A DNA stretch of 64,000 nucleotides from Candidatus Woesearchaeota archaeon. GTDB lineage: Archaea > Nanobdellota > Nanobdellia > SCGC-AAA011-G17 > JACPNG01. Shown piece by piece: positions 3,897 through 62,581 of the stretch. The translations under genes were made by a program, and so were the position numbers. The stretch covers positions 5,253 through 69,252 of the forward strand of contig JACPNE010000002.1 in assembly GCA_016185615.1 (NCBI GenBank), in the 5' to 3' direction. The first letter of the stretch is position 1. Each line of letters begins with the position of its first letter. The notes below the pieces were generated by a model. It was given only the letters and a program-made list of their open reading frames with translations, did not search any database and had not been told where the DNA came from.

Positions 3897-5630
3897 ATGA
3901 GATATAAATTATTAATCATAGTATTATACTTAGTGTCTTTGCCTATAATCATCCATGCTCAAGCCGAGTTTGCAGCTTTACCTTTAGCAGAAAAGATTAC
4001 ATGGCTTGAAAAACCTGCCAACTTCAATCATCCGGAATATACCAATAGGCTTTTGCAATATGCTCCACTTAAAGATTATAAAGAACTGTGGTTTGAATAT
4101 TTAAATAAAATTGATATTAACAGTGAGAATGAAAATATTTTCTTTAGATATTTAAATGAAATAGATGATACATCTTCATCAAATCAGAACATTGCAGACA
4201 AATTTTTGACACATAAAAAAACTATAAAAGGGGATAGTATTAATATAGCAAATAGATTTCTCAGCTCTAAAATTAATGGTAATTTTGACATTAGTTCAAG
4301 TAATTCTGAATATTTGGGGGATTGGAAGCTAAAAAATGGAAACATTGAATTAAATCTTAATGACAATCAGTTTTCTGGTGCAAGAATAAAATCATTGTCA
4401 GAAGGAGGTTTCGAGATATCGCCAAAGCAGGCAATTAAAATAGGAGAGAATGTTTACAAAGTTCCTTTATCTTCACAATTTAAACTTAATAATGATTTTT
4501 CTGTTAATGTTCCGAAAGACTCGGAAATATTGCCTAATCAGGGTGGAAAAATAATAGTAAGGGATCTTGATGAATCTATTATAAAAATAAATAATGAGAT
4601 ACAAGTAAGAAATGGCTATATTGACTATATCAATGATAATAAAGTATTGAGTGGCCGGGATTTTAATATTTATTTTAAAAATAGCAGATATTCCGGAAAT
4701 TATATCGCTTTTGAAGGGGATGCTTTCACATTGCAGGGAGAAGCAAGCATCTCAATAAGGAATAGAGATGGACTATATAACACATTTATAGGAAATGATC
4801 AAAAATATGGGTGGGAAAGTCAAGATAGTATAACAATAAAACCATTTGGTCCATCAGAAAAAGATAATACACCATATCTATTTTCGGAGCACGATATAAC
4901 AATAAATGATAAAAAACAAACTATAAAATACAAGTATATTAGTGATGGAAAAGACTTTTATGTCAGACCGGGAACTTCAATAGGTAAACTTGGTGAAATA
5001 GCTGATAGTTTTAAGCTGAATGATGTAAAGCTCCCAGGAATTATAGTAGATACTAAAAATCAATTAAGATTAGATAGTGATGGCCTTTTTATCAAACAAG
5101 TCAACCATTTCTTGGGAAATGAACCAAAGTATGTTCATCATAAGTTTATTTTGGATGATATTACAAAACTTAAAACAATTCAAATGAGGGGAACACAGCT
5201 TACAAATGGTGGGGTAATGACCCTAAACACAGACATAACTTTTACTGAAAACGGGTTTATTCCCTCTGATTTAGATCTTGAGTTACAAAGGGGAAGAAAT
5301 ATAATGACTGTGCCATCTAGCATTCAAGATAAAATAATTAGCGATGCTATAAGAAATAATGCACTGAAGATAGAAATGAAATTTGATCTGGAAAATCTAT
5401 TTGCTAGATTTGGCGATGGAAGATTAAGAAGCAGTTTGCTTGGACTTATAAATGAAATGAGAATAAGTGAAACTGATTTATCTGTTTTTAAAAAAGCACT
5501 TGAGGAATTTGGATTTGGAAAGACATTAAGAATAGAGGGCATGGAAATATTTATAGATAATAAGAAAGTCGGAGTATTAAGTGATACTGAGTCTTTTAAA
5601 AGATTAGTTATTGACTCATTAAACAGATAG
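3897..5630 (+). CDS. Hypothetical secreted protein
   Basis: Signal peptide 'MRYKLLIIVLYLVSLPIIIHAQA'. Starts 2 nt after the previous stop. No family recognised. Confidence 0.5.
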   Translation: MRYKLLIIVLYLVSLPIIIHAQAEFAALPLAEKITWLEKPANFNHPEYTNRLLQYAPLKDYKELWFEYLNKIDINSENENIFFRYLNEIDDTSSSNQNIADKFLTHKKTIKGDSINIANRFLSSKINGNFDISSSNSEYLGDWKLKNGNIELNLNDNQFSGARIKSLSEGGFEISPKQAIKIGENVYKVPLSSQFKLNNDFSVNVPKDSEILPNQGGKIIVRDLDESIIKINNEIQVRNGYIDYINDNKVLSGRDFNIYFKNSRYSGNYIAFEGDAFTLQGEASISIRNRDGLYNTFIGNDQKYGWESQDSITIKPFGPSEKDNTPYLFSEHDITINDKKQTIKYKYISDGKDFYVRPGTSIGKLGEIADSFKLNDVKLPGIIVDTKNQLRLDSDGLFIKQVNHFLGNEPKYVHHKFILDDITKLKTIQMRGTQLTNGGVMTLNTDITFTENGFIPSDLDLELQRGRNIMTVPSSIQDKIISDAIRNNALKIEMKFDLENLFARFGDGRLRSSLLGLINEMRISETDLSVFKKALEEFGFGKTLRIEGMEIFIDNKKVGVLSDTESFKRLVIDSLNR

Positions 5631-19426: not shown

Positions 19427-20491
19427 TCAGAATTCATCAAGTTTCTTGATTGAGCTATAGTTTAATACAAGCGTTTTACCACCTTTATCCGAAATTGCAT
19501 TTTCTGCTGTTATAATATTATCTTCAACTAATTTGCTTATTTTTCTCTTAAATGTCTTATAAGAAATTTCATTGTCTTTTTTATAAATATCATAAATCTC
19601 AGTTATTGTTTTTCCAGAGTTTGATTTTATTAGTTTAAGTATATCATTAACATCATCTTCAAAATCATTTGTATTTTTAGTTTTATAATCATCTAATTTC
19701 TTAATTGCATTTTCTGAATGTTCCAAAATTATTTTTTTAGAAGACCCATCTTCAGCAATGTTTCCAGCTTCCCTTAATAAAAATAATCCAGCCCTTATAT
19801 CTCCTAATTCATAAGCTTTCTTGGCTATTAACTCAAATGCTTTTTGTTCCCATACATCTTTTACAAAACCATACTCAATTCTTTTTCTTAGTATTCCTTT
19901 TGTTTGCTCTAAATTATATGATTTAAACCCCAACTCTTCTAAGGTTAATCTTGATCTTAGTCTTGAATCTAAATTAATCAGCCAATCTTTATCGTTTGTT
20001 ATAAAAAAAACTGTTTTCTTATAAATATCTTCTAATATATAATAAATTCCATCTATTTCAGTTAATTTATCCGCTTCATCCATAACAAATACAGCTGTTT
20101 TTTTGTTTAGGATATTTTTTATTTCTTTGAAAAGCTCATCTGTTGTCTTGTTATGCACCCATTTGTAATCAATCTGCTCACAAATGCTTAAAGCCATTTT
20201 ATGTGTAGTGTCCTTTTTCCAGCAGTTTATGTATATTTTGTAAACTTCGTCATACTCCTCTAATTCATTCAAGACATGTTTCAAACAAACTGTTTTTCCA
20301 ACCCCTGGATTTCCGAATATAAGCAAATTCTTTCCATTCCTGTTTTGTAGTAATGGCCTAATACAAGAGGCAATATACCCTTGTTCTGACTCCCTATATG
20401 GAACCAATTTTGGCTGGAAATCAAAATCTAGTTGTTCTGGATTAAGAAATAATGACTCAGAATCCTTTAACATATCATCAAATAGTCCCAT
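19427..20491 (-). CDS. cdc6: Orc1/Cdc6 replication initiator
   Basis: Walker A 'GNPGVGKT', Walker B 'VFVMDEADKL', AAA+ lid and a C-terminal winged helix. Confidence 0.9.
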   Translation of the reverse strand: MGLFDDMLKDSESLFLNPEQLDFDFQPKLVPYRESEQGYIASCIRPLLQNRNGKNLLIFGNPGVGKTVCLKHVLNELEEYDEVYKIYINCWKKDTTHKMALSICEQIDYKWVHNKTTDELFKEIKNILNKKTAVFVMDEADKLTEIDGIYYILEDIYKKTVFFITNDKDWLINLDSRLRSRLTLEELGFKSYNLEQTKGILRKRIEYGFVKDVWEQKAFELIAKKAYELGDIRAGLFLLREAGNIAEDGSSKKIILEHSENAIKKLDDYKTKNTNDFEDDVNDILKLIKSNSGKTITEIYDIYKKDNEISYKTFKRKISKLVEDNIITAENAISDKGGKTLVLNYSSIKKLDEF

Positions 20492-22891: not shown

Positions 22892-22936
22892 AATAAAAGC
22901 ATATATGCATATTGAATAAAAGCATATATGCATATT
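22892..22936. repeat. Tandem 22-bp direct repeat, each unit containing the perfect palindrome GCATATATGC
   Basis: AATAAAAGCATATATGCATATT occurs at 22892-22913 and 22915-22936, 1 nt apart. Lies in the divergent intergenic region between the RDD gene and the wHTH membrane-protein gene. Confidence 0.85.
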
Positions 22937-23052
22937 AGTAATATTATATGTATAAAAACGAAATTCTTTTAAATAAAACAGCTATAATATTCTAATGTTT
23001 TTTAGGAGGAACTGTTTTCACACACTATATTATATTAGCATTAATTATATTT

Positions 23053-23946
23053 TTGCCTATAACAATGGGCAATGTAGAAGGAGCTACGTTAGATATAGAA
23101 TTTATCTTGAATAGTAATAAAGCACATCAAACATTATCTTATAATTTTTCAAAGCCAATAATCGATAATTCATTAGAATATACAATTGCTAGTGATATTG
23201 ATAGTGTCAACGTATTAGCTAATGGAAAAGAAGCTGATTTTGAAATAAGCCAAAATGAGGAAGTAAATACAATAAAAATAAATTCTTCAGAACCAATTAA
23301 CGATTTACAAATGTCTTTTAATGTAAATGATGTTATATTTAAGAATGGTAATACAAATCATTTTTTTACTGAATTATCTTTAAATAAAACAATTGTTTCT
23401 GACATTTCAGTAAAGGCAGTAATTCCCGCTGGCTATGGTTTATATGATAATTCATTTAAGCCGGAATCTGGAGCAATAACTAGTGATGGACAAAATGTTG
23501 TTGTTGAATGGGACGACGTAGATACAAGTAAACCATTACTTTTTTCTGTTAAATACAGAAAAGTAACTTTTCCAAGTTGGATTTTATGGACTTTAATAGT
23601 TTCATCTTTGACTATCTTAATAATATTGTTATATTTTCAATATCAACAAAAAACAGAGAAAGCAATGTTATACGGTTTTAGGGAAGATGAAAAGAAAGCC
23701 CTTGTATTCATTAAAACACATAAAAATATCTTACAAAAAGAGCTTCAAAATGAGTTTAAATTTTCACGTGCTAAATCTACAAGAATTGTAAAAAGATTAG
23801 AAGAAAAAGGATTGATAAAAAAAGAAGAATTTGGTAGAACAAATAAAATTATGTGGAGGGGGGAATTTTCTGAAAAAAAAGAGGATATAAAAGATCTTAA
23901 TGAAAAATTAAATCAAACATTCAATTTCTGGGAAAAATTAAAATAA
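23053..23946 (+). CDS. Membrane-tethered transcription regulator candidate: extracytoplasmic N-domain, one TM, cytoplasmic winged helix-turn-helix (COG2512-like architecture)
   Basis: TM 'WILWTLIVSSLTILIILLYF' followed by 'EDEKKALVFIKTHKNILQKELQNEFKFSRAKSTRIVKRLEEKGLIKKEEFGRTNKI' (MarR/wHTH-like). The start codon is uncertain (TTG 23053 or ATG 23065). Confidence 0.6.
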   Translation: MPITMGNVEGATLDIEFILNSNKAHQTLSYNFSKPIIDNSLEYTIASDIDSVNVLANGKEADFEISQNEEVNTIKINSSEPINDLQMSFNVNDVIFKNGNTNHFFTELSLNKTIVSDISVKAVIPAGYGLYDNSFKPESGAITSDGQNVVVEWDDVDTSKPLLFSVKYRKVTFPSWILWTLIVSSLTILIILLYFQYQQKTEKAMLYGFREDEKKALVFIKTHKNILQKELQNEFKFSRAKSTRIVKRLEEKGLIKKEEFGRTNKIMWRGEFSEKKEDIKDLNEKLNQTFNFWEKLK

Positions 23947-23982
23947 ATCAGCATTTAATCTGTTTTACTATTTGTTTTTGTT

Positions 23983-24046
23983 ATTGTTTCAAATTGTTTC
24001 AAAGCTGTTTCACATTGTTTCAAGAACAAATTAAGTATCTGAAACA
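23983..24046 (+). promoter_or_regulatory. Phased TGTTTCA x4 array, TATA-like AACAAATTAAGTA, then inverted TGAAACA; candidate operator/promoter of the 24137 gene
   Basis: TGTTTCA at 23985, 23995, 24006 and 24016 (10/11/10-bp spacing). TGAAACA at 24040-24046. The 3' 42 bp are repeated exactly at 26800-26841. Confidence 0.5.
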
Positions 24047-24136
24047 CTTTCTATTTTTGTCATAATGTTAGTGCGCACAATGTATCCTAGGCACATTGGT
24101 TGCACTAGATAGATAAGTATATTTGGGGGTGAAAGA

Positions 24137-26182
24137 ATGAAAAATGAAAAATATAAGCAAATAGCTGGTGCGCTGGTTGTTGTCTTTTTATTGTTAGCAG
24201 CACCTTTTGCTTTTGCTAATGGTTCTGGTGTAGATACATCTAGCATAAATGTAGATGTAAACACAGAATCGCAGTCAGAAGCAAGTGCTGAAGCAACTGG
24301 AGATGATTCTAGTGCGGAAGCAGACGCTAGTTCTGAATCGGGGGTTGAAGTAGATGCCAGTATTTCCGATGGTGATGAATCTAGTGTTGATGTAAAAGCA
24401 GATGCTAAATCTGAAGCAAATGCACAAGCAACTTCTGAAGTAGATGAAGATGATGATTGTGACACTGGATGCGATGATGAAGATACATCAAGTGAAGCTG
24501 AAGCAGAAGCAAGTGCTGAAGCAGAAGCAGAAGTAAGTGTTGAAACATCTTCCGGAACAAGTGATAACTGTGGTAACAAATGTAAACCTAAATGCGACAG
24601 TGATTGTGATGAAAACACATCTAATATAGAAGTAGAAGCAACAGCTGAAGCTGAGTCTGAAGCACAAGCAAGTACAACCTCATCAGGAGGATCTGGTGGT
24701 GGAAGCTGTAATGATTGTGACGAATGTGACACTGGATGCGATGATGAAGATACATCAAGTGCAGAAGCAGAAGCTAGCGCAGAAGCTGAAGCAGAGGTTG
24801 AAGTAGATAATAATAATGACTGTGGTAGTGAATGTGACGAAGATTCAACAATAAAAGCAGAAGCTAGCGCAGATGCAGAAGCTGAAGCAGAAGCAACTGG
24901 AGAAGGTAGTTCAGCATTTTCTAGTGCTGTAGCAAAAGCTGAAGCAACTGTTAATGTAGTCATTTCTGCATGTAATGAGATGATAGATGCAATAGTCAAA
25001 GCCGTTGCAGAAGCCCAAGCAAATGCACAAGCAACTTCTGAAGTAGATGAAGATGATGATTGTGACACTGGATGCGATGATGAAGATACATCAAGTGAAG
25101 CTGAAGCAGAAGCAAGTGCTGAAGCAAGTGCTGGATCATCATCTAATACAAATGACCACTGCGGAAGTAGATGCAAACCTAAGCCTAAATGTGGTACTGA
25201 ATGTAATAATACAGAAGACACATTAGGCGAGGCAAATGCTGAAGCAGAAGCTGAATCAGATGCTGAAGCAGAAGCAAAAGCTGAGTCTGAAGATGAGGGT
25301 GGTGCAGAAGCATTAGCTAATGCCGACGCAGAAGCTGAAGCTGAGGTTGAAGCTGAATTAGACAAAGCTTGTAATGAAGCTAAGGCTTACGCTAAATCTG
25401 TAGCTGAAGGTAGATCTGAGGCTATAACAAAAGTGTATGAACTTATAACTTCATTTGTAGAAGCTATGACTAAAGTATTCACTTCTGCTGAAGTAGATGG
25501 AGATGAATTAGGCATTGCTGTAGCAGAGGCTATGGCTAAAGCTTATGCAGAAGTTAATGTATTTGCTGACGCAGAAGCTGAAGCTTACGCTAAGGCTTTG
25601 AGTGAGGCTAGAGCAGAAGCTGAAGCAAAATGTGGGGAAGCTTCAGAAGCTAAGGCAAAAACTAACGCTAAAGCTAGTGCAGAAGCAAGAGCAGAAGCAG
25701 AAGCAAGAGCAGAAGCAAGTGCAGAAGCTCATGCCGAAGCTGAAGCTCATGCAGAAGCATGCATTGGATCAGATGAGTTATCTGATGCCGAAGCTCATGC
25801 AAAAGCTAGTGCTGAAGCTTCAGCTAGAGCATACGCACATGCAGTAGCATCTGCATTTGCTAGTGCAAGAGCAGAAGCATACGCTAAAGCAGTAGCTAGC
25901 AGTTCTGCTGGAGATGCAAGTGCTAAAGCAACAGCTGAGGCAAATGCTAAAGCCGCTGCAGAAGCTGCCGACAAAGCAGAAGCTGAAGCAGAAGCAAGTG
26001 CAGAAGCTGCCGCTAAAGCAAAAGCGCATGTAGAAGGACTTGGAAAAGCAGAAGCAGATGCTGAAGGTATTGCTCATGCTGAATCAGATGGTGAGGATGA
26101 AGCAAGCGTTGATTCAAACACATTAGCTGAAGACAATGGTGAAGCAGAAGCAGAAACTTTAGCAGAGGCTAGCTCAGAATAA
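24137..26182 (+). CDS. Secreted hyperacidic Ala/Glu-rich protein with Cys-cluster modules and (Ala-X)n tracts; function unknown
   Basis: GGGGGTGA SD 6 nt before the ATG. Signal peptide 'ALVVVFLLLAAPFAFANG'. 681-aa uninterrupted ORF with three 'CDTGCDDEDTSS' modules and C-x3-C clusters. Hairpin plus T-tract after the stop. Confidence 0.75.
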   Translation: MKNEKYKQIAGALVVVFLLLAAPFAFANGSGVDTSSINVDVNTESQSEASAEATGDDSSAEADASSESGVEVDASISDGDESSVDVKADAKSEANAQATSEVDEDDDCDTGCDDEDTSSEAEAEASAEAEAEVSVETSSGTSDNCGNKCKPKCDSDCDENTSNIEVEATAEAESEAQASTTSSGGSGGGSCNDCDECDTGCDDEDTSSAEAEASAEAEAEVEVDNNNDCGSECDEDSTIKAEASADAEAEAEATGEGSSAFSSAVAKAEATVNVVISACNEMIDAIVKAVAEAQANAQATSEVDEDDDCDTGCDDEDTSSEAEAEASAEASAGSSSNTNDHCGSRCKPKPKCGTECNNTEDTLGEANAEAEAESDAEAEAKAESEDEGGAEALANADAEAEAEVEAELDKACNEAKAYAKSVAEGRSEAITKVYELITSFVEAMTKVFTSAEVDGDELGIAVAEAMAKAYAEVNVFADAEAEAYAKALSEARAEAEAKCGEASEAKAKTNAKASAEARAEAEARAEASAEAHAEAEAHAEACIGSDELSDAEAHAKASAEASARAYAHAVASAFASARAEAYAKAVASSSAGDASAKATAEANAKAAAEAADKAEAEAEASAEAAAKAKAHVEGLGKAEADAEGIAHAESDGEDEASVDSNTLAEDNGEAEAETLAEASSE

Positions 26183-26799: not shown

Positions 26800-26841
26800 C
26801 TGTTTCACATTGTTTCAAGAACAAATTAAGTATCTGAAACA
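26800..26841 (+). promoter_or_regulatory. Second exact copy of the 42-bp TGTTTCA/TATA/TGAAACA element
   Basis: CTGTTTCACATTGTTTCAAGAACAAATTAAGTATCTGAAACA is identical to 24005-24046. In both copies ATAATG follows exactly 16 nt downstream. Confidence 0.55.
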
Positions 26842-26890
26842 GTCCTTATTCAAATTATAATGGGCACTATATCAACTGGGGGTGACAAAA

Positions 26891-28453
26891 ATGAAAATGA
26901 ACAAATTTAGTGCAATTATTTCAATATTAATTATTGTAGCTTTACCCTTAGTTATAGCACAAGGAGTAAATGATACAATAAATGATAGCTTGGGAAACAA
27001 CACAATGAATGAATTGAATAATATGAGCAACAATACACAGACATTAAATGATACAAGCACTTTAAACAATAATAGTAATGATACTTTCAACGATACCTTA
27101 GACGAAAGTGATGAAATATTGGAAGAAGATTTGATGAATGATTCGGAATTGGAAAATGATTCTGATAATGAAAGTGTACAAACTATGGATGAGGAAGTAA
27201 CTTCAACAAATTTAGGATTCCGTCAATTAGGAGAAGCATTAAATGATTTTATGTTTAATCTTCAATCAGCTTTTACATTTAGGGAAGAATCAAAATTGGA
27301 GTTACTTCAGGATAGGGTAGAAGAATTAAGAGTACGTCAACAAGAATGGGTTGAATTAAAACAACAAGCATTAATTAAATTTGATAGTGAGGAATCTGAC
27401 GCAGAGGAGAAACAGGATGTTTTAGATAGACTTAAAGAAAAACATAATGACATAATAAAAGATTATGTTGAAGTCATCTATGATTTAAATACAATTAAGG
27501 TTGAAGCAAGGGAAGATGGAGAAATAGATATAGAACAAAGAGCAAATAATTTCGCATTAGGAATAGAAGATTCTGATCTTTCACTTGGATTAAATACTAA
27601 TAGTGAAGCTGATTTAGCAGAAGAGATAGATAATGAATCAACAAGTGAAACTAGTGTTTCTGCTCAAGAGGCTATAGAAATTGCTGAAGATGAGTTTGAT
27701 TTTGATGCAACTAGCGTTACTGAAAGGGAGATGAATGGTCGATTAGTTTATCTCGTTGAAGGAACCAGAAGTGATACCTTTGGAACAACAGAATTAGATG
27801 GAATATATCAAGTATTAATTGATGCAAATACTGGAATTATCTCGTCTGTCAATATTAATATAGATATAGCATCAGGAGAGACTATAGAAAATGATTCATT
27901 AGGCATTGATAATCAAACAGCCAGTAATCAAACAACTAATCAAACAACTGGTAATCAGTCTATTGGTAATCAATCCAGAACAATGAATGAATCAAGAACA
28001 AATAGAACTGATAACAGAACTGAAGCTGGGGGGGAGGTAGAAGAAGACATTGAAATTAGAATTAATGGAAATATCAACTTTTCAGAAGAAGATGAAGAAA
28101 TGCTTAGGGATTTAGTTGAAGATTTTATAGAGTCAACTAATGAGGCAAAAATTGCAATAGAGGTTGATAAAGATGGGGGAGCAATTTCAATTGCAAGCAG
28201 TATAGCTGGAGATTTAACCTCTGAACAAGAGGGGAGATGGGATGAGATACAAGAAGAGATAAGATCATTAGTGAGTGAATTTTCAAGTGTCCAACTTAGG
28301 ATAGAAGCAGAGAGAGAATTTAGTGGAGAGTCTAACCAAACTAGTTCAAGCAGAGCAAGTGCTAGTGCCAGAAGTGAAAGTGAGAATGAAACTGCTAATG
28401 CTAGAGCAAGGAGTGAAGCTAGAAGTGAAAGCAGTTCAAGTAGTGACTATTAA
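26891..28453 (+). CDS. Secreted PepSY-domain protein with two N-glycosylation-sequon-rich linkers and a Ser/Ala/Arg/Glu low-complexity tail
   Basis: SD GGGGGTGA precedes the ATG at 26891, so the track GTG at 26882 is less likely. Signal peptide 'FSAIISILIIVALPLVIAQG'. PepSY-like 'SAQEAIEIAEDEF...MNGRLVYLVEG...YQVLIDANTGIISSV'. Confidence 0.65.
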   Translation: MKMNKFSAIISILIIVALPLVIAQGVNDTINDSLGNNTMNELNNMSNNTQTLNDTSTLNNNSNDTFNDTLDESDEILEEDLMNDSELENDSDNESVQTMDEEVTSTNLGFRQLGEALNDFMFNLQSAFTFREESKLELLQDRVEELRVRQQEWVELKQQALIKFDSEESDAEEKQDVLDRLKEKHNDIIKDYVEVIYDLNTIKVEAREDGEIDIEQRANNFALGIEDSDLSLGLNTNSEADLAEEIDNESTSETSVSAQEAIEIAEDEFDFDATSVTEREMNGRLVYLVEGTRSDTFGTTELDGIYQVLIDANTGIISSVNINIDIASGETIENDSLGIDNQTASNQTTNQTTGNQSIGNQSRTMNESRTNRTDNRTEAGGEVEEDIEIRINGNINFSEEDEEMLRDLVEDFIESTNEAKIAIEVDKDGGAISIASSIAGDLTSEQEGRWDEIQEEIRSLVSEFSSVQLRIEAEREFSGESNQTSSSRASASARSESENETANARARSEARSESSSSSDY

Positions 28454-46482: not shown

Positions 46483-47843
46483 AAAAAGTAATATTTCTAA
46501 CTTTTACATTTTTATTTTTAATTCCATTTGTTAATGCAATTACAATAGATTATGACAGCACTTCATTGAATAAGACAGGAGGCATTGGAGAGTATCCGGT
46601 CTTGGCCATTTCTCAGCTTAAATATGAGCCATATCCTGTTGAACCAGGAGAAAGATTTAGTTTGTGGATTAAAGTAAAAAATATTGGAAGTGATCCTGCT
46701 GACAATGTTTATGTATCTTTGGTTGAGACAAAAACATTTTCCATAGATACAGACAATACAAGAATTATAGGAGAATTGCAGCCAGCCCAGGAAGCATTAT
46801 TAAAATTCGAAAATATAAAAGTAGCAGATGATATTGCTGATGGAATAAATGAAATTGAATTCTTATTAAGCCCGGGCGGTGGTTATTCAAAAAATATTCT
46901 TTCCAGAAAATTAGATATAGAGATAAGGTCTGTTGATCCTATATTAAATATATACGTTGAAACATATCCGGAAATTCTATCTCAGGGATCTCCTGCTAAA
47001 TTAAATCTTACACTAGAAAATGCTGATAATTCTATAATAAGAGATATAAACATTAAACTCCAGCTTCCGGATGAAATAGCTCCGATAGGAACTTCTATTG
47101 AGAAAAAAATAGATAGGCTGTTGCCAAAGCAGAGGGCATCTTTAATTTATGATATAATTCCATTAGGGGATGCTTTGTCAAACGCATATAAAATTCCAAT
47201 AAATTTAACTTATAGAGATGAAACTGGAGATACAATCTCAAAAGATGAGGTTATAGGATTATTAATTGGTGGTGTTATAGACTTTGATTTGGGAATAAAA
47301 GAAACAGACATAGTCAGGAAAAATCAAAAAGGAGAAGTAACATTGGGGGTTTCAAATGTTGGACCTTCTGATATAAAATTCTTAATACTTGAGGTGCTTC
47401 CATCCGAAAAATATGAAATATTATCCAATCCAAGAGAGTATATAGGAAATCTGGAAAGTGACGATTTTCAGACAGTAGAATTTAATCTTTATATAAAAGA
47501 AGACAATCCCGAAATAAAAGTATCCTTAAAATATAAAGACAACTTTAACCAAGATAAAGAAGAGATAATTGATGTTCCATTAAATACATACTCATATAAT
47601 GAAGCAAGAAAGTATGGTCTTGTAGAAAGTGGAAATCAATTAATGTATCTTTTTTATATAGTAATAATTATTATACTACTTTTAACATGGGGCGAATGGA
47701 GAAAAACAAAAAATGTAAAAGAATCAATAAAGAATGCTTTTGAAAGATTCTTTAGAGGATTAATCAGAATAATAAAATCGTTTAGTTGGAGAAATATAAA
47801 GAGACTCCCAAGAAGAATAAAGAACTTTTTTGATTCATCATAA
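46479..47843 (+). CDS. Secreted COG1361/CARDB-like repeat protein with C-terminal TM anchor
   Basis: Signal peptide. 'LKYEPYPVEPGERFSLWIKVKNIGSDPADNVYVSL' has a CARDB-like pattern. Its position between the ABC ATPase and FtsX permeases is a recurrent archaeal arrangement. Confidence 0.6.
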   Translation: MKKVIFLTFTFLFLIPFVNAITIDYDSTSLNKTGGIGEYPVLAISQLKYEPYPVEPGERFSLWIKVKNIGSDPADNVYVSLVETKTFSIDTDNTRIIGELQPAQEALLKFENIKVADDIADGINEIEFLLSPGGGYSKNILSRKLDIEIRSVDPILNIYVETYPEILSQGSPAKLNLTLENADNSIIRDINIKLQLPDEIAPIGTSIEKKIDRLLPKQRASLIYDIIPLGDALSNAYKIPINLTYRDETGDTISKDEVIGLLIGGVIDFDLGIKETDIVRKNQKGEVTLGVSNVGPSDIKFLILEVLPSEKYEILSNPREYIGNLESDDFQTVEFNLYIKEDNPEIKVSLKYKDNFNQDKEEIIDVPLNTYSYNEARKYGLVESGNQLMYLFYIVIIIILLLTWGEWRKTKNVKESIKNAFERFFRGLIRIIKSFSWRNIKRLPRRIKNFFDSS

Positions 47844-49030
47844 TGATACACGATTATCTTAGAATAGCTCTTATTAATATAATGCATAGAAAACTGAGGG
47901 CCTGGCTTACAGTTATAGGAATAGTAATTGGGGTAGGTGCAGTAATAACATTATTTTTGGTTTCTAGTGGACTAGAAAATGCAATTGTCGAGCAATTCAA
48001 TCAGCTTGGTGCAGGAAGAATATATGTTTTCCCAAAAACACAAATAGCAGGCTCATTTGAGTCAGCATTGACTGAACAAGATTTAGATACAATAAGCTCT
48101 GTTCCAGGGGTAGAGTGGACACTAGGTTACAGAGTAACAGGTTCAGGAATAGAATTCGGAAGAGAAAAAGATTTTACTCCCTATTTAATATCAATACAAA
48201 CAGATAATCTCAAGGAAAAAGTAGAAGGCATTACTTATTTTACTCCAGCAGAAGGAAGGTTGTTTGAGAACAATGAAAGGGGATCTGCTTATATAGGCCA
48301 TAATATTGCCTACGAAGTTTTTGAAAAAGACATGAGCATTGGGAATAATTTATTAATAAACAATGGAAAGTTTAAGGTTATAGGAATAGCCCCAAAAATA
48401 GGAACTCCGGATGATAACAATATATTCATGTCTGATGATGATTTTGTTGAATTGTTTCCGAATTTTGGAGATGAGGTTTCATTCATAGAATTGAAAGTAA
48501 CTGATGGTAGTGATATAGATGAAATCTCAAATAGAATTCAAAATGAATTGGAAAATGCAAGGGATGATGAGAATTTTAATATACAAACCCCTGAAAGTTT
48601 TTTGGAATCATTACAAGTAATCCTAACAGTCATACAAGTAGTTCTTGGTGGAATAGCAGCTATATCACTTGTAGTCGGAGGGATAGGAATAGCAAACTCA
48701 ATGTTCACTTCTGTATTGGAAAGAACAAGGGAAATAGGGGTAATGAAAGCAATCGGAGCAAGGAATTCAAGTATACTTTTGTTATTTCTAGTTGAATCAG
48801 CTATGATAGGATTAATCGGAGGAATAATTGGATTATTATTAGGAATAGGAGCCTCTCTGCTAATAGAGAGAATAGTAATTAATTCAGGATTTGGATTACT
48901 AAAAATAATTGTAACACCATGGATAATAATATTTGGGTTATTTTTTGCTTCAGCTGTAGGCATAATTTCCGGATTAATTCCAGCTTATAGGGCATCAAAG
49001 CAAAAACCAATTGATGCGTTGAGGTCATAA
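47843..49030 (+). CDS. FtsX/MacB-like ABC permease (paralog 1)
   Basis: N-terminal TM, large extracytoplasmic domain, C-terminal FtsX 3-TM bundle 'GGIGIANSMFTSVLERTREIGVMKAIGA'. Confidence 0.85.
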   Translation: MIHDYLRIALINIMHRKLRAWLTVIGIVIGVGAVITLFLVSSGLENAIVEQFNQLGAGRIYVFPKTQIAGSFESALTEQDLDTISSVPGVEWTLGYRVTGSGIEFGREKDFTPYLISIQTDNLKEKVEGITYFTPAEGRLFENNERGSAYIGHNIAYEVFEKDMSIGNNLLINNGKFKVIGIAPKIGTPDDNNIFMSDDDFVELFPNFGDEVSFIELKVTDGSDIDEISNRIQNELENARDDENFNIQTPESFLESLQVILTVIQVVLGGIAAISLVVGGIGIANSMFTSVLERTREIGVMKAIGARNSSILLLFLVESAMIGLIGGIIGLLLGIGASLLIERIVINSGFGLLKIIVTPWIIIFGLFFASAVGIISGLIPAYRASKQKPIDALRS

Positions 49031-50217
49031 TGGAAATAAATGAAATAATTAGGTTGTCATTTAGGAATTTAATAAGAAGAAAACTGAGATCAGGGTTGAC
49101 AGTTATAGGAATAATTATTGGAATCACGTCTATTATCTCATTAATCTCATTATCACAGGGATTAGAGGAGTCAATAACAGGAGAATTTGCAAGACTAGGC
49201 TCAAATAATATAATAATTACACAAAAAGGATTATCCGGGCCACCGATAGGAACAAAAGCATTAACTGAAAAAGACCTGGAATTTCTGGAAAAATTTAATG
49301 AATTTGAATTTGTCCTTCCTGGCTATATTAAATCTGCTGAAGTTGAATTTAATAATCAAAAAGTTGTAACCTTAGTTTCTGCAACAGCACAGAATTTAGC
49401 TGACGAAAGGGCGGAAGTTTTCGGATTTGAATTTGCAGAAGGTAGAAATCTTAATGATAATTCACGAGGGGATGTGTTTATCGGAGATGTACTTGCAAAA
49501 GATACATTCGATAAGGAGATTTTTATTAATTCAAATATAGAGATAAACAATAAAAGATTTAGGGTTATTGGGATTCTTAAGAGAGAAGGTTCTCAGGAGG
49601 TTGATAGGATTATAGGAATGTCCGAAGAGGATATTAAAGAATTATTTGATTTGGAAGATACAGTAAATGCGATTAATGCGCAGGTTAAAGAAGGAGTTGA
49701 TCTTGATAGCTTAGTTGAGGAAGTCAAAAGAGAATTGGAGGACTTTAGAGATTCAGAGGATATAGATGTTCAGACACCAGCACAACTCCAGGAGCAATTT
49801 AGTAATATAATCGGAATTGTAAGCATTGTTGTCGTGGGAATAGCAGCTATATCACTTGTAGTCGGAGGGATAGGAATAGCAAACTCAATGTTCACTTCTG
49901 TATTGGAAAGAACAAGGGAAATAGGGGTAATGAAAGCAATCGGAGCAAGGAATTCTGAAATTCTTGGTATATTCATCTGGGAAGCAGCAACAATAGGATT
50001 AATCGGAGGAATAATTGGTGTATTTCTTGGATTATTGGTTTCATATTTAATAAAATTAGGAGCATCTCTTGGAGGCATTGAAATTAATATAATCTATAAT
50101 CTAAATGTAATAATCTTTGCATTGGTTTTCTCGATGGTAATTGGGATAGTTTCGGGATTATGGCCTGCTGTACAAGCATCAAGACAGAAGCCAGTTGATT
50201 CGTTAAGATATGAATAA
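49030..50217 (+). CDS. FtsX/MacB-like ABC permease (paralog 2)
   Basis: Same architecture and same length (395 aa) as paralog 1. ATG overlaps the upstream stop. Confidence 0.85.
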   Translation: MEINEIIRLSFRNLIRRKLRSGLTVIGIIIGITSIISLISLSQGLEESITGEFARLGSNNIIITQKGLSGPPIGTKALTEKDLEFLEKFNEFEFVLPGYIKSAEVEFNNQKVVTLVSATAQNLADERAEVFGFEFAEGRNLNDNSRGDVFIGDVLAKDTFDKEIFINSNIEINNKRFRVIGILKREGSQEVDRIIGMSEEDIKELFDLEDTVNAINAQVKEGVDLDSLVEEVKRELEDFRDSEDIDVQTPAQLQEQFSNIIGIVSIVVVGIAAISLVVGGIGIANSMFTSVLERTREIGVMKAIGARNSEILGIFIWEAATIGLIGGIIGVFLGLLVSYLIKLGASLGGIEINIIYNLNVIIFALVFSMVIGIVSGLWPAVQASRQKPVDSLRYE

Positions 50218-60464: not shown

Positions 60465-60503
60465 TTTTAGAAAGTTATAAAAATATATCCAAAACTAAAT
60501 TTT

Positions 60504-61190
60504 ATGCCTAAATTAGTATATATCTCTCATGAAATAAGTGGAGATGTAAAAGGTAATATAAGAAAAATTCTTGGAATATGTAAAATAGTCCATACTAAAG
60601 ATACAATACCTTTTACTCCTTATCTATCTTTATTACAATATCTTGATGATGAATCTATTGAAGAAAGATTATTGGGAATGGAAGCAAATGCTGAACATTT
60701 TAGAAGAGGAAGTTTTGATGAGCTCTGGGTTTATGGGACAAAGGTTTCTAAAGGGGTTTTTGAAGAATTGGAATTATCTGTACAATTTAATATTCCTGTA
60801 AAAGTTTGTGATAAAAGGGTTAAAGTTGAAACAAATTATGCTTTTAAGGGGATAAGAAGAGGAATGGCTCTTCCAAGATATTTAATGGCTGAAAGAAAAT
60901 TACCAAATAGAAATACATTATTTTTTAGAAGGGATTCAACTAATGATATTGTTCTATTTGAATCAGATACTTTTCTTGATCCAAAAACAGGAAAAGATGT
61001 CTCAAGATTTATTCCAACTGTTATTTCATGGGATGAAATTCTGGATGGTTGGATTGCATTAGAAAATAAATGTAAAAATTATGGAAGAGCCAAACAAAGA
61101 AGTTTTAAGGAAAGATTTTATGATCATCTGGCTGGATTATATGGGAATCACAGATCTTTAGATAATGCTTTTAGTGCTTCATTAGCATAA
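60504..61190 (+). CDS. Hypothetical protein
   Basis: 228-aa ORF. The N-terminal about 100 aa look flavodoxin-like (DUF4406/NDT-like?). Not confidently assigned. Confidence 0.4.
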   Translation: MPKLVYISHEISGDVKGNIRKILGICKIVHTKDTIPFTPYLSLLQYLDDESIEERLLGMEANAEHFRRGSFDELWVYGTKVSKGVFEELELSVQFNIPVKVCDKRVKVETNYAFKGIRRGMALPRYLMAERKLPNRNTLFFRRDSTNDIVLFESDTFLDPKTGKDVSRFIPTVISWDEILDGWIALENKCKNYGRAKQRSFKERFYDHLAGLYGNHRSLDNAFSASLA

Positions 61191-62407: not shown

Positions 62408-62452
62408 ATTTATGATTAGAAAGTTATTTAAATTTATGAAACACAATAAATT

Positions 62453-62581
62453 ATGCCAAATTTTTTAGCTAAATATAGAACAAAAACAAAAAGACCCATA
62501 AGTTTTAAGACAAAAAGTGGAAAGAGAGTTCGTTTTAAAGGAAAAAGAACTTCAATGAGAAGGAAAAGAGTAGTGTTTTAA
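62453..62581 (+). CDS. Micro-ORF encoding a 42-aa highly basic protein
   Basis: 'MPNFLAKYRTKTKRPISFKTKSGKRVRFKGKRTSMRRKRVVF'. No clear SD. Absent from ORF track. Confidence 0.3.
   Translation: MPNFLAKYRTKTKRPISFKTKSGKRVRFKGKRTSMRRKRVVF

Follow-up and report, generated by a model that had tools for sequence, protein, structure and literature searches.

In the 64,000-nucleotide stretch of a Candidatus Woesearchaeota genome analyzed here (positions 5,253 to 69,252 of contig JACPNE010000002.1, assembly GCA_016185615.1; hereafter the window, numbered from its first letter), a helically phased array of TGTTTCA heptamers ending in an inverted TGAAACA lies directly downstream of a gene for a winged helix-turn-helix (wHTH) protein. 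The core of this array is a fixed composite of three identical half-sites around a sequence that resembles the archaeal transcription factor B (TFB) recognition element (BRE) and TATA box, and the composite is linked, across phyla and in dozens of DPANN archaea, to one gene family and stands before genes whose products are secreted or lie at the cell surface. As far as sequence comparison can tell, the array is probably the operator or activator site of a membrane-anchored one-component regulator, built into the core promoters of two secreted-protein genes. The features concerned are the following, where DR1 and DR2 are the two direct repeats of the core and SD is a Shine-Dalgarno sequence.

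23053 to 23946, + strand: candidate regulator gene, DUF7343/MarR-like; the NCBI start is the ATG at 23065 (P0001, 293 amino acids [aa]).
23961 to 23979, + strand: degenerate heptamers TGTTTTA and TGTTTTT, T-rich, a possible oligo-T terminator of the wHTH gene.
23985 to 24001, + strand: two extra exact direct repeats TGTTTCA (23985 and 23995), in helical phase, also found in loci L119 and L133.
24006 to 24022, + strand: core direct repeats DR1 (24006 to 24012) and DR2 (24016 to 24022); DR2 abuts the BRE-like sequence and is predicted to lie at about -44 to -39.
24023 to 24039, + strand: 17-nt spacer AGAACAAATTAAGTATC, with BRE-like AGAACA at 24023 to 24028 and TATA-like AATTAAGT at 24029 to 24036.
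24040 to 24046, + strand: inverted copy TGAAACA; across aligned elements its first base is T in 31/39 and C in 8/39, without a compensating change in DR2.
24047 to 24136, + strand: AT-rich block predicted to melt first (24048 to 24055), predicted start at about 24059 to 24062, 5' leader, and SD GGGGGTGA (24125 to 24132), assigned from position-specific enrichment and leader alignment.
24137 to 26182, + strand: target gene 1, for a secreted protein of 681 aa, acidic and repetitive (rich in A/E/S/D), which has a signal peptide and three motifs of the DDDCDTGCDDEDTSS type.
26800 to 26841, + strand: second core, with DR1 (26801 to 26807), DR2 (26811 to 26817), spacer (26818 to 26834), and inverted copy (26835 to 26841); predicted start at about 26854 to 26857.
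26891 to 28453, + strand: target gene 2, encoding a 520-aa secreted protein with a PepSY match (32.4 bits); SD GGGGGTGA at 26878 to 26885.

A preliminary description of this DNA, made from its letters alone, reported four exact heptamers and an inverted copy, and each is present where it was placed: TGTTTCA starts on the + strand at 23985, 23995, 24006, and 24016, with 10, 11, and 10 bp from one start to the next, and an inverted TGAAACA occupies 24040 to 24046. Exact heptamers occur 32 times on the two strands of the window, against 15.9 ± 3.6 in dinucleotide shuffles, and the densest same-strand cluster holds 4 copies in 40 bp. The maximum reached per 40 bp in 300 first-order Markov simulations was 1 copy (282 runs) or 2 copies (18 runs), and 4 copies never occurred. 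The cluster is non-random, as the description had argued.

What the description missed is a second copy of the core at 26800 to 26841, which is identical at 42 of 42 positions to 24005 to 24046, lies 2.8 kb away in direct orientation, and precedes the next secreted-protein gene. With one mismatch allowed, the pair GTTTCA-N17-YGAAAC is found at only two places in the 64 kb. Beyond the core, the two promoters are similar in patches through the leader to the common SD GGGGGTGA and an ATGAAAA start. Compared with the second promoter, the first leader has insertions of 33 nt and 9 nt (24068 to 24122), which are G+C-rich for this genome and include two palindromes, GTGCGCAC and CCTAGG, as well as the pair CAATGT/ACATTG; the hairpin score there is z -0.3 against shuffles.

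The two degenerate heptamers, TGTTTTA at 23961 (one mismatch) and TGTTTTT at 23973 (two mismatches), do exist, but their repeat character is not kept in L119, a relative that is 94 to 97% identical: there a 12-bp unit at the degenerate heptamers is absent, while a T5 tract persists. They probably lie outside the site and may instead form the oligo-T terminator of the wHTH gene. L119 also keeps the second core copy. Most relatives have only two direct copies, against four at the window's first promoter. What is conserved is a pair of direct copies and the inverted one, with a rigid N17 between DR2 and the latter; the phased arrangement of four to six copies is a local, lineage-specific expansion of the two-copy core.

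The distribution of the element was surveyed in two ways. A DNA-only scan of 185,579 species genomes with the pattern TGTTTCA-N3/4-TGTTTCA-N14-20-TGAAACA gave at least 118 loci, mostly bacterial arrays of other kinds. Among the matches listed, seven archaeal loci have a wHTH homologue directly beside the array, and in all seven both the N-terminal domain and the wHTH match the window protein (tblastn, 1e-9 to 1e-30). These loci are labeled Woesearchaeota, Aenigmatarchaeota, a "Methanosarcinales" metagenome-assembled genome (MAG), and uncultured archaeon; the element of locus L022 is identical to that of the window at 38 of 41 positions. Of the loci listed by the scan, these seven were the informative ones. 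A pattern scan of viral contigs gave 20 matches, none with a wHTH homologue nearby, and a link to viruses was rejected on that basis.

The bacterial matches include repeat families of a different kind. A module of three TGTTTCA and three TGAAACA copies occurs at many places in two Acidobacteriota genomes (MFD01916 bins: L003, L040, L052, L055, L086, L100, L102, and L115), and a sequence of about 60 nt (TGTTTCAAAATGTTTCATTTTGTCATACCCATGAAACATTTTTGCATATAACA) recurs within a single Bacteroidales MAG, on over 15 of its contigs (RUG11857; L006, L007, L017, L026, L030, and others). Such repetition likely points to the end of a mobile element or to a large regulon. The same could be asked of the archaeal element, since two identical 42-bp copies lie 2.8 kb apart and some bacteria have repeated elements with this heptamer pattern in their genomes; it would then be a mobile-element end or a recent duplicate without regulatory function. 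The archaeal copies, however, recur in several archaeal phyla at the orthologous place next to the same gene; their flanks and spacers have diverged in sequence, yet their geometry is fixed. No transposase or integrase is adjacent in the window either, and we give this explanation hardly any credence.

The second survey selected loci by protein only, with an alignment of 31 homologues as the query against metagenome contigs, and returned 67 loci. The composite GTTTCA-N4/5-GTTTCA-N17-YGAAAC is exact in 36 of these, present with at most one mismatch in 47, and present with at most two in 50, while five rounds of block-shuffled controls gave no composite. The suggestion that the adjacent membrane-tethered wHTH protein is the candidate binder thus gains support from co-occurrence, at 50/67 protein-selected loci and at all seven archaeal loci of the pattern scan. 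The distance from DR2 to the inverted copy is 17 nt in all 47 of 47 instances, although 13 to 22 nt were allowed, and the period of the direct repeats is 10 or 11. Among the 50 loci with the element, DR1 is altered in 11, the inverted copy in 3, and DR2 in 1; because mismatches fall mainly in DR1, the pair that flanks the spacer is the conserved core.

The element has the same orientation as the wHTH gene in 47 of 52 cases, mostly within 175 nt of it, and 11 elements start exactly 2 nt past the wHTH stop codon. Such a position, together with an inverted pair that could form 6 to 7 bp, would also suit an RNA function, in which a GTTTCA...TGAAAC hairpin ends or stabilizes the wHTH transcript or controls the downstream leader. 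The predicted folding energy is nevertheless at the level of shuffled sequence (z -0.02 for 23940 to 24060, and z -0.3 for the leader), and the hairpin loop would be 17 nt long. It is the sequence that is conserved and not the pairing, as the sole variable position (T/C, in 31 and 8 elements) breaks a pair without compensation. Where the target gene is divergent (L059, L130, and L163), the element precedes the target and is not at the wHTH 3' end. We rejected the hairpin or terminator, which folds no better than shuffles and lacks compensatory change, as very improbable.

Alignment of 39 unique elements, anchored on DR2, gave the consensus ATTGTTTCA(c) - aATTGTTTCA - CGAAa - TTTTAAaT - nnn - TGAAAC(a). 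Positions 6 to 11 (CGAAa-like, resembling a BRE) and 12 to 19 (TTTTAAaT-like, resembling a TATA box) are fixed across the 39 elements, and their counterparts in the window are AGAACA and AATTAAGT; G+C-rich relatives still hold CTAAT, GATAT, or AATAT at the TATA-like block. An archaeal core promoter is expected to have an octamer that is A/T-rich and TATA-like some 26 bp ahead of the start, preceded by a purine-rich BRE; the spacer carries both sequences, in this order, across the 39 elements. Past the inverted copy, the eight positions from +31 to +38 relative to DR2 are almost free of G and C, and on the same scale a pyrimidine occupies +43 in 33/39 elements and a purine +44 in 28/39. A GGTGA-type SD and an ATG typically follow 15 to 30 nt past the element. 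The TATA-like sequence noted between the direct and inverted copies has counterparts across the 39 elements, and the view of a site wrapped around an archaeal core promoter is supported by the BRE/TATA-like spacer, AT-rich block, pyrimidine-purine step, SD, and ATG.

With the TATA center set at about -27, the direct copies would span about -55 to -39, the inverted copy about -21 to -16, and the AT-rich block about -13 to -6. Position-specific conservation would place the starts at about 24059 to 24062 and about 26854 to 26857. Most genes of the window have a strong aAAGnTTTATAAA box about 25 to 35 nt before the ATG, a spacing that suggests mRNAs with a short leader or none; the two genes that follow the arrays are unlike them, with an SD present and the aAAGnTTTATAAA box absent. 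Elsewhere in the window, a 48-nt promoter-like repeat (TTAGAAAGTTATAAAAATAT…ATGCC) stands before two genes, at 60467 to 60514 and 62416 to 62463, and one copy has a lone TGAAACA.

The window carries archaeal markers (Orc1/Cdc6, ELP3, DUF655, an S13-S4-S11-RpoD cluster, and a stand-alone 5S rRNA) at about 30% G+C, and Rfam finds in it the 5S rRNA and two tRNAs only, with none at the array region. The Orc1/Cdc6 gene (19427 to 20491) lies 3.5 kb upstream of the element, the cumulative GC skew has a local minimum at 22 to 24 kb, and phased direct repeats resemble iterons, all of which would suit a replication origin element or iteron array related to the origin recognition box (ORB). Yet the skew turns at the point where genes come to lie mostly on the + strand, and the two copies stand in direct orientation before two genes, at fixed distances from the SD and ATG. 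A cdc6 gene is near the element in only 2 of 74 related loci, L119 (the same species) and L114, and no AT-rich unwinding element flanked by inverted ORBs was found, ORB-like repeats beside cdc6 not having been searched. With cdc6 unlinked in relatives and the element tracking gene starts, the origin reading was rejected; we consider it highly unlikely.

The presumed binding partner matches a protein annotated as [quoted passage not shown] at 100%. Residues 207 to 267 match three Pfam families above their cut-offs: PF24034 at 34.8 bits (cut-off, 27.6), PF01047 at 29.2 (24.6), and PF12802 at 27.3 (27); PF24034 is found in 31 of 31 homologues. The AlphaFold2 model (mean predicted local distance difference test score, 92.4) comprises an all-beta domain (residues 7 to 166), a long helix (171 to 202), a wHTH domain (207 to 264), and a C-terminal helix. 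The wHTH is modeled as a three-helix bundle (207 to 219, 224 to 231, and 235 to 247) with a beta-hairpin wing (strands 251 to 256 and 259 to 264), and it begins four residues past the membrane helix. Because of this order and the N-terminal signal peptides of homologues, the topology is read as outer domain, membrane helix, and cytoplasmic wHTH. Across the aligned homologues, neither the recognition helix FSRAKxTRI nor the wing GRTNK varies, which parallels the invariant half-site. A sequence search of solved structures gave only weak Lrs14-like and MarR/SlyA matches (E 0.009 to 0.02). For the outer domain, Foldseek gave only loose matches, to N-domains of M1-aminopeptidases and to OST1 (TM-scores, 0.3 to 0.43), too little to name a ligand. 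The family is large: a search of cluster representatives found homologues in 164 clusters at E ≤ 1e-30 and in 1093 at E ≤ 1e-10.

The start of the window's wHTH gene is unusual. In the region from 22995 to 23065, a signal-peptide-like segment (…FTHYIILALIIFLPITMGNVEG) lies upstream in frame, with no ATG, GTG, or TTG ahead of it; the ATG at 22995, next to a T6 run, is in another frame, and an AGGAGG is followed after 5 nt by an in-frame GTT. The missing canonical start is not an assembly error, because the same arrangement is found in the independent assembly L119; it could reflect a non-canonical start, a frameshift, or an impaired gene. Upstream, in the divergent intergenic region between an RDD-family gene and the wHTH gene, the perfect palindrome GCATATATGC occurs twice, 23 bp apart (22899 to 22908 and 22922 to 22931), inside the direct repeat ATAAAAGCATATATGCATATT; shuffles would give 0.02 copies. 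The pair is conserved in L119 only, and may be a putative operator of another factor that controls the wHTH gene.

The genes that follow the element are diverse in family, and nearly all encode signal-peptide proteins. The 681-aa target of the window has no Pfam or NCBIfam match, nor does a 101-aa open reading frame; a comparable acidic secreted protein follows the element in L091 (Woesearchaeota). The 681-aa gene contains 12-nt-periodic GCAGAAGC-type repeats (A/E/S-rich) and three near-identical DDDCDTGCDDEDTSS(A)EAEA blocks, two of them inside a 132-nt duplication (24392 to 24523 and 24995 to 25126; 94% identical). The 520-aa target has relatives among the secreted proteins of the DUF5667 type encoded after the element in other lineages, and tblastn finds its homologues beside the wHTH gene in L091, L114, L120, L123, L124, L131, L160, L164, and L176. 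DUF5667 is found in the targets of L059, L165, L135, and L191, and L191, which encodes a more distant homologue of the regulator, keeps a complete element ahead of its DUF5667 gene. The targets in Aenigmatarchaeota belong to a Cys-rich secreted family. In L124, L131, L132, L136, L137, and L164 the gene right after the element encodes a cytoplasmic zinc-ribbon protein of 66 to 96 aa (…KLLSKEE…CKECG…YYY), with the DUF5667/PepSY-type gene further downstream. Away from the element, the window also holds tandem paralogous 395-aa genes (47843 to 50217; the first at 47843 to 49030, and the second at 49030 to 50217), which have a 207-nt repeat (86%) and a 61-nt repeat in common and come after a gene for a CARDB/NPCBM-like secreted protein.

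Two distant loci have a reduced site. In L186 (4040 to 4080, …GTTTCAcggaaggTTTATATA…) and L192 (about 2720 to 2760, …GTTTCAagaagTTTATATATA…), GTTTCA stands directly upstream of a strong BRE/TATA, with CAAAAC in place of the inverted half-site after a 20-nt gap. The neighbor gene in L186 matches S_layer_C (65.7 bits). The truncated neighbor in L192 scores 18.7 bits for the same family, under the cut-off of 23.9, and its N terminus resembles the L186 protein; it is probably an S-layer gene. The window's own two targets have no S-layer domain match in Pfam or NCBIfam. In the second-tier homologue loci linked to MJ0538 (L189, L190, and L193), the full element was not found.

Binding, like the start site and the sign of regulation, is something that we infer, and the mechanism that we propose is as follows. 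The cytoplasmic wHTH domains of the regulator would bind the GTTTCA half-sites; the BRE-adjacent direct copies would recruit or stabilize TFB and the TATA-binding protein (TBP), giving activation, and the inverted copy would either complete a clamp across the TATA box or, at high occupancy, block RNA polymerase. The activating role would follow the rule of position known for activators of the EarA and CsmR type and for the GvpE site. With its four copies, the first promoter might gain in occupancy or cooperativity. With the wHTH tethered about four residues from the membrane, all sites would have to face one side of the helix, and the phasing of 10 to 11 bp fits such a one-sided approach. The operator lies just past the stop codon and the wHTH is C-terminal, so a nascent, membrane-inserting regulator, with its wHTH made last, could meet its operator in cis. 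As to sign, we lean toward activation as the primary role, because the window TATA is weak (AATTAAGT) and the BRE-proximal copy is the most conserved and the sole part kept at the S-layer-type promoters; repression is the less favored option, though one to be taken seriously.

Several points weigh against this model. The element was not found in 17 of the 67 protein-selected loci. Some of these are too short (e.g., L121, L129, and L145), and the weakest matches (L178 to L185) cover the wHTH domain only, but long loci with full-length homologues also lack it (e.g., L122, L134, and L150); the element is not universal in the wHTH family. With no canonical start ahead of the signal-peptide-like segment, the local copy of the regulator could be impaired. 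The inverted half-sites are 23 bp apart, center to center, which is too far for a compact MarR-type dimer. The positions also point in opposite directions as to sign: repressors typically bind between TATA and start, where the inverted site lies, and activators typically bind ahead of the BRE. Finally, the tie between protein and motif is guilt by association, and the wHTH and DUF5667-type genes are syntenic, so any promoter feature there would co-occur with the regulator.

This last point leads to the most serious alternative, that the site is real and embedded in the promoter but serves an unlinked transcription factor or a TFB/TBP variant, with the wHTH gene co-occurring through synteny. 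The widely conserved order of wHTH and DUF5667/PepSY genes would make promoter features track the wHTH gene in just this way. The element, however, stays by the wHTH gene when the target family changes, from acidic repeat to Cys-rich, small zinc-ribbon, and distant S-layer-type proteins. A global factor should have more than two sites in 64 kb, both of them beside the wHTH gene, and the residues of the wHTH that would read the DNA are invariant, as the half-site is. We consider an unlinked factor unlikely, and we retain the membrane-anchored regulator as the probable ligand of the site.

The proposed regulator can be compared with several known systems. ToxR, CadC, and TcpP act at phased direct repeats by the promoters of nearby genes for envelope or secreted proteins, and in them, as here (helix 171 to 202), a single transmembrane helix joins an extracytoplasmic sensor domain to a winged-helix domain. 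Their wHTH is N-terminal and of the OmpR/PhoB type, whereas in the window protein it is C-terminal and MarR/DUF7343-like, with no Pfam match to Trans_reg_C (PF00486). The partner here would be the archaeal TBP/TFB/RNA polymerase machinery and not a sigma-70 polymerase, and there is an inverted half-site downstream of TATA. The resemblance to ToxR and CadC is functional only.

ArnR and ArnR1 of Sulfolobus acidocaldarius are membrane-bound factors that control genes for cell-surface structures, and they have an N-terminal HTH and a membrane anchor at the C terminus (PMC13286277). The wHTH of the window protein is C-terminal, and no sequence relationship was detected; the two systems also differ in lineage (Crenarchaeota for ArnR/ArnR1) and in targets, which for ArnR/ArnR1 are the archaellum and pili. 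GvpE is a soluble leucine-zipper-like protein. Its upstream activating sequence in haloarchaeal gas-vesicle promoters, TGAAACGG-n4-TGAACCAA, adjoins the BRE and is needed for activation (PMC2241852). That site, too, consists of two phased direct repeats just upstream of the BRE, with a half-site that resembles TGAAAC, but its period is 12 bp, it is without an inverted copy downstream of TATA, and its lineage and genes are unrelated to those of the window system; that the half-sites look alike is probably a coincidence.

Where a factor is bound downstream of the TATA box, polymerase is blocked. EarA and CsmR bind upstream of the BRE and favor the recruitment of TFB and TBP (PMC13286277). The window system has a logic of position in common with upstream-of-BRE activators (EarA, Ptr2, TFB-RF1, and CsmR) and with repressors that act between TATA and start (Phr, MDR1, and TrmB). 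It differs from factors of the EarA and Phr types in that the same half-site stands at both positions, across a fixed 17-bp gap that holds the TATA box, and in that the presumed factor is membrane-tethered. Regulators of the MarR/Lrs14 type, small and soluble, act as dimers on short palindromes whose half-sites lie about one turn apart. The window protein is like them in its Pfam matches to MarR and MarR_2 above cut-off; it differs in having a 170-residue outer domain and a transmembrane helix, and its site in having inverted half-sites 23 bp apart. We conclude that the system is outside the ToxR/CadC, ArnR, and GvpE families, and a literature search (DUF7343, DUF5667, and DUF2207 in archaea; TGAAAC in archaeal promoters) yielded no description of it.

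To our knowledge, almost nothing is known of how genes are regulated in DPANN archaea, a group that cannot be cultured alone, and little is known of how archaeal genes for S-layer and other surface proteins are controlled. The window offers a testable pair, a 40-bp operator of fixed geometry and a small soluble domain suited to in vitro assay, and would show a membrane-tethered factor at work on a promoter of the TBP/TFB type whose TATA box is flanked on either side by the same half-site. It would also supply a simple rationale for the placement of the regulator gene directly upstream of its target, a functional handle for at least 164 sequence clusters now labeled "MarR family" or "hypothetical," and a possible link to the control of S-layer genes. 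More tentatively, DUF7343 proteins with this architecture might be one-component regulators that span the envelope, sense the state of the cell surface through the beta-rich outer domain and switch on the neighboring gene for a main surface or S-layer-type protein through a TATA-straddling GTTTCA operator, which the nascent protein would find in cis. If true, DPANN archaea would have their first defined cis-trans regulatory pair, and archaeal S-layer genes a first candidate regulator.

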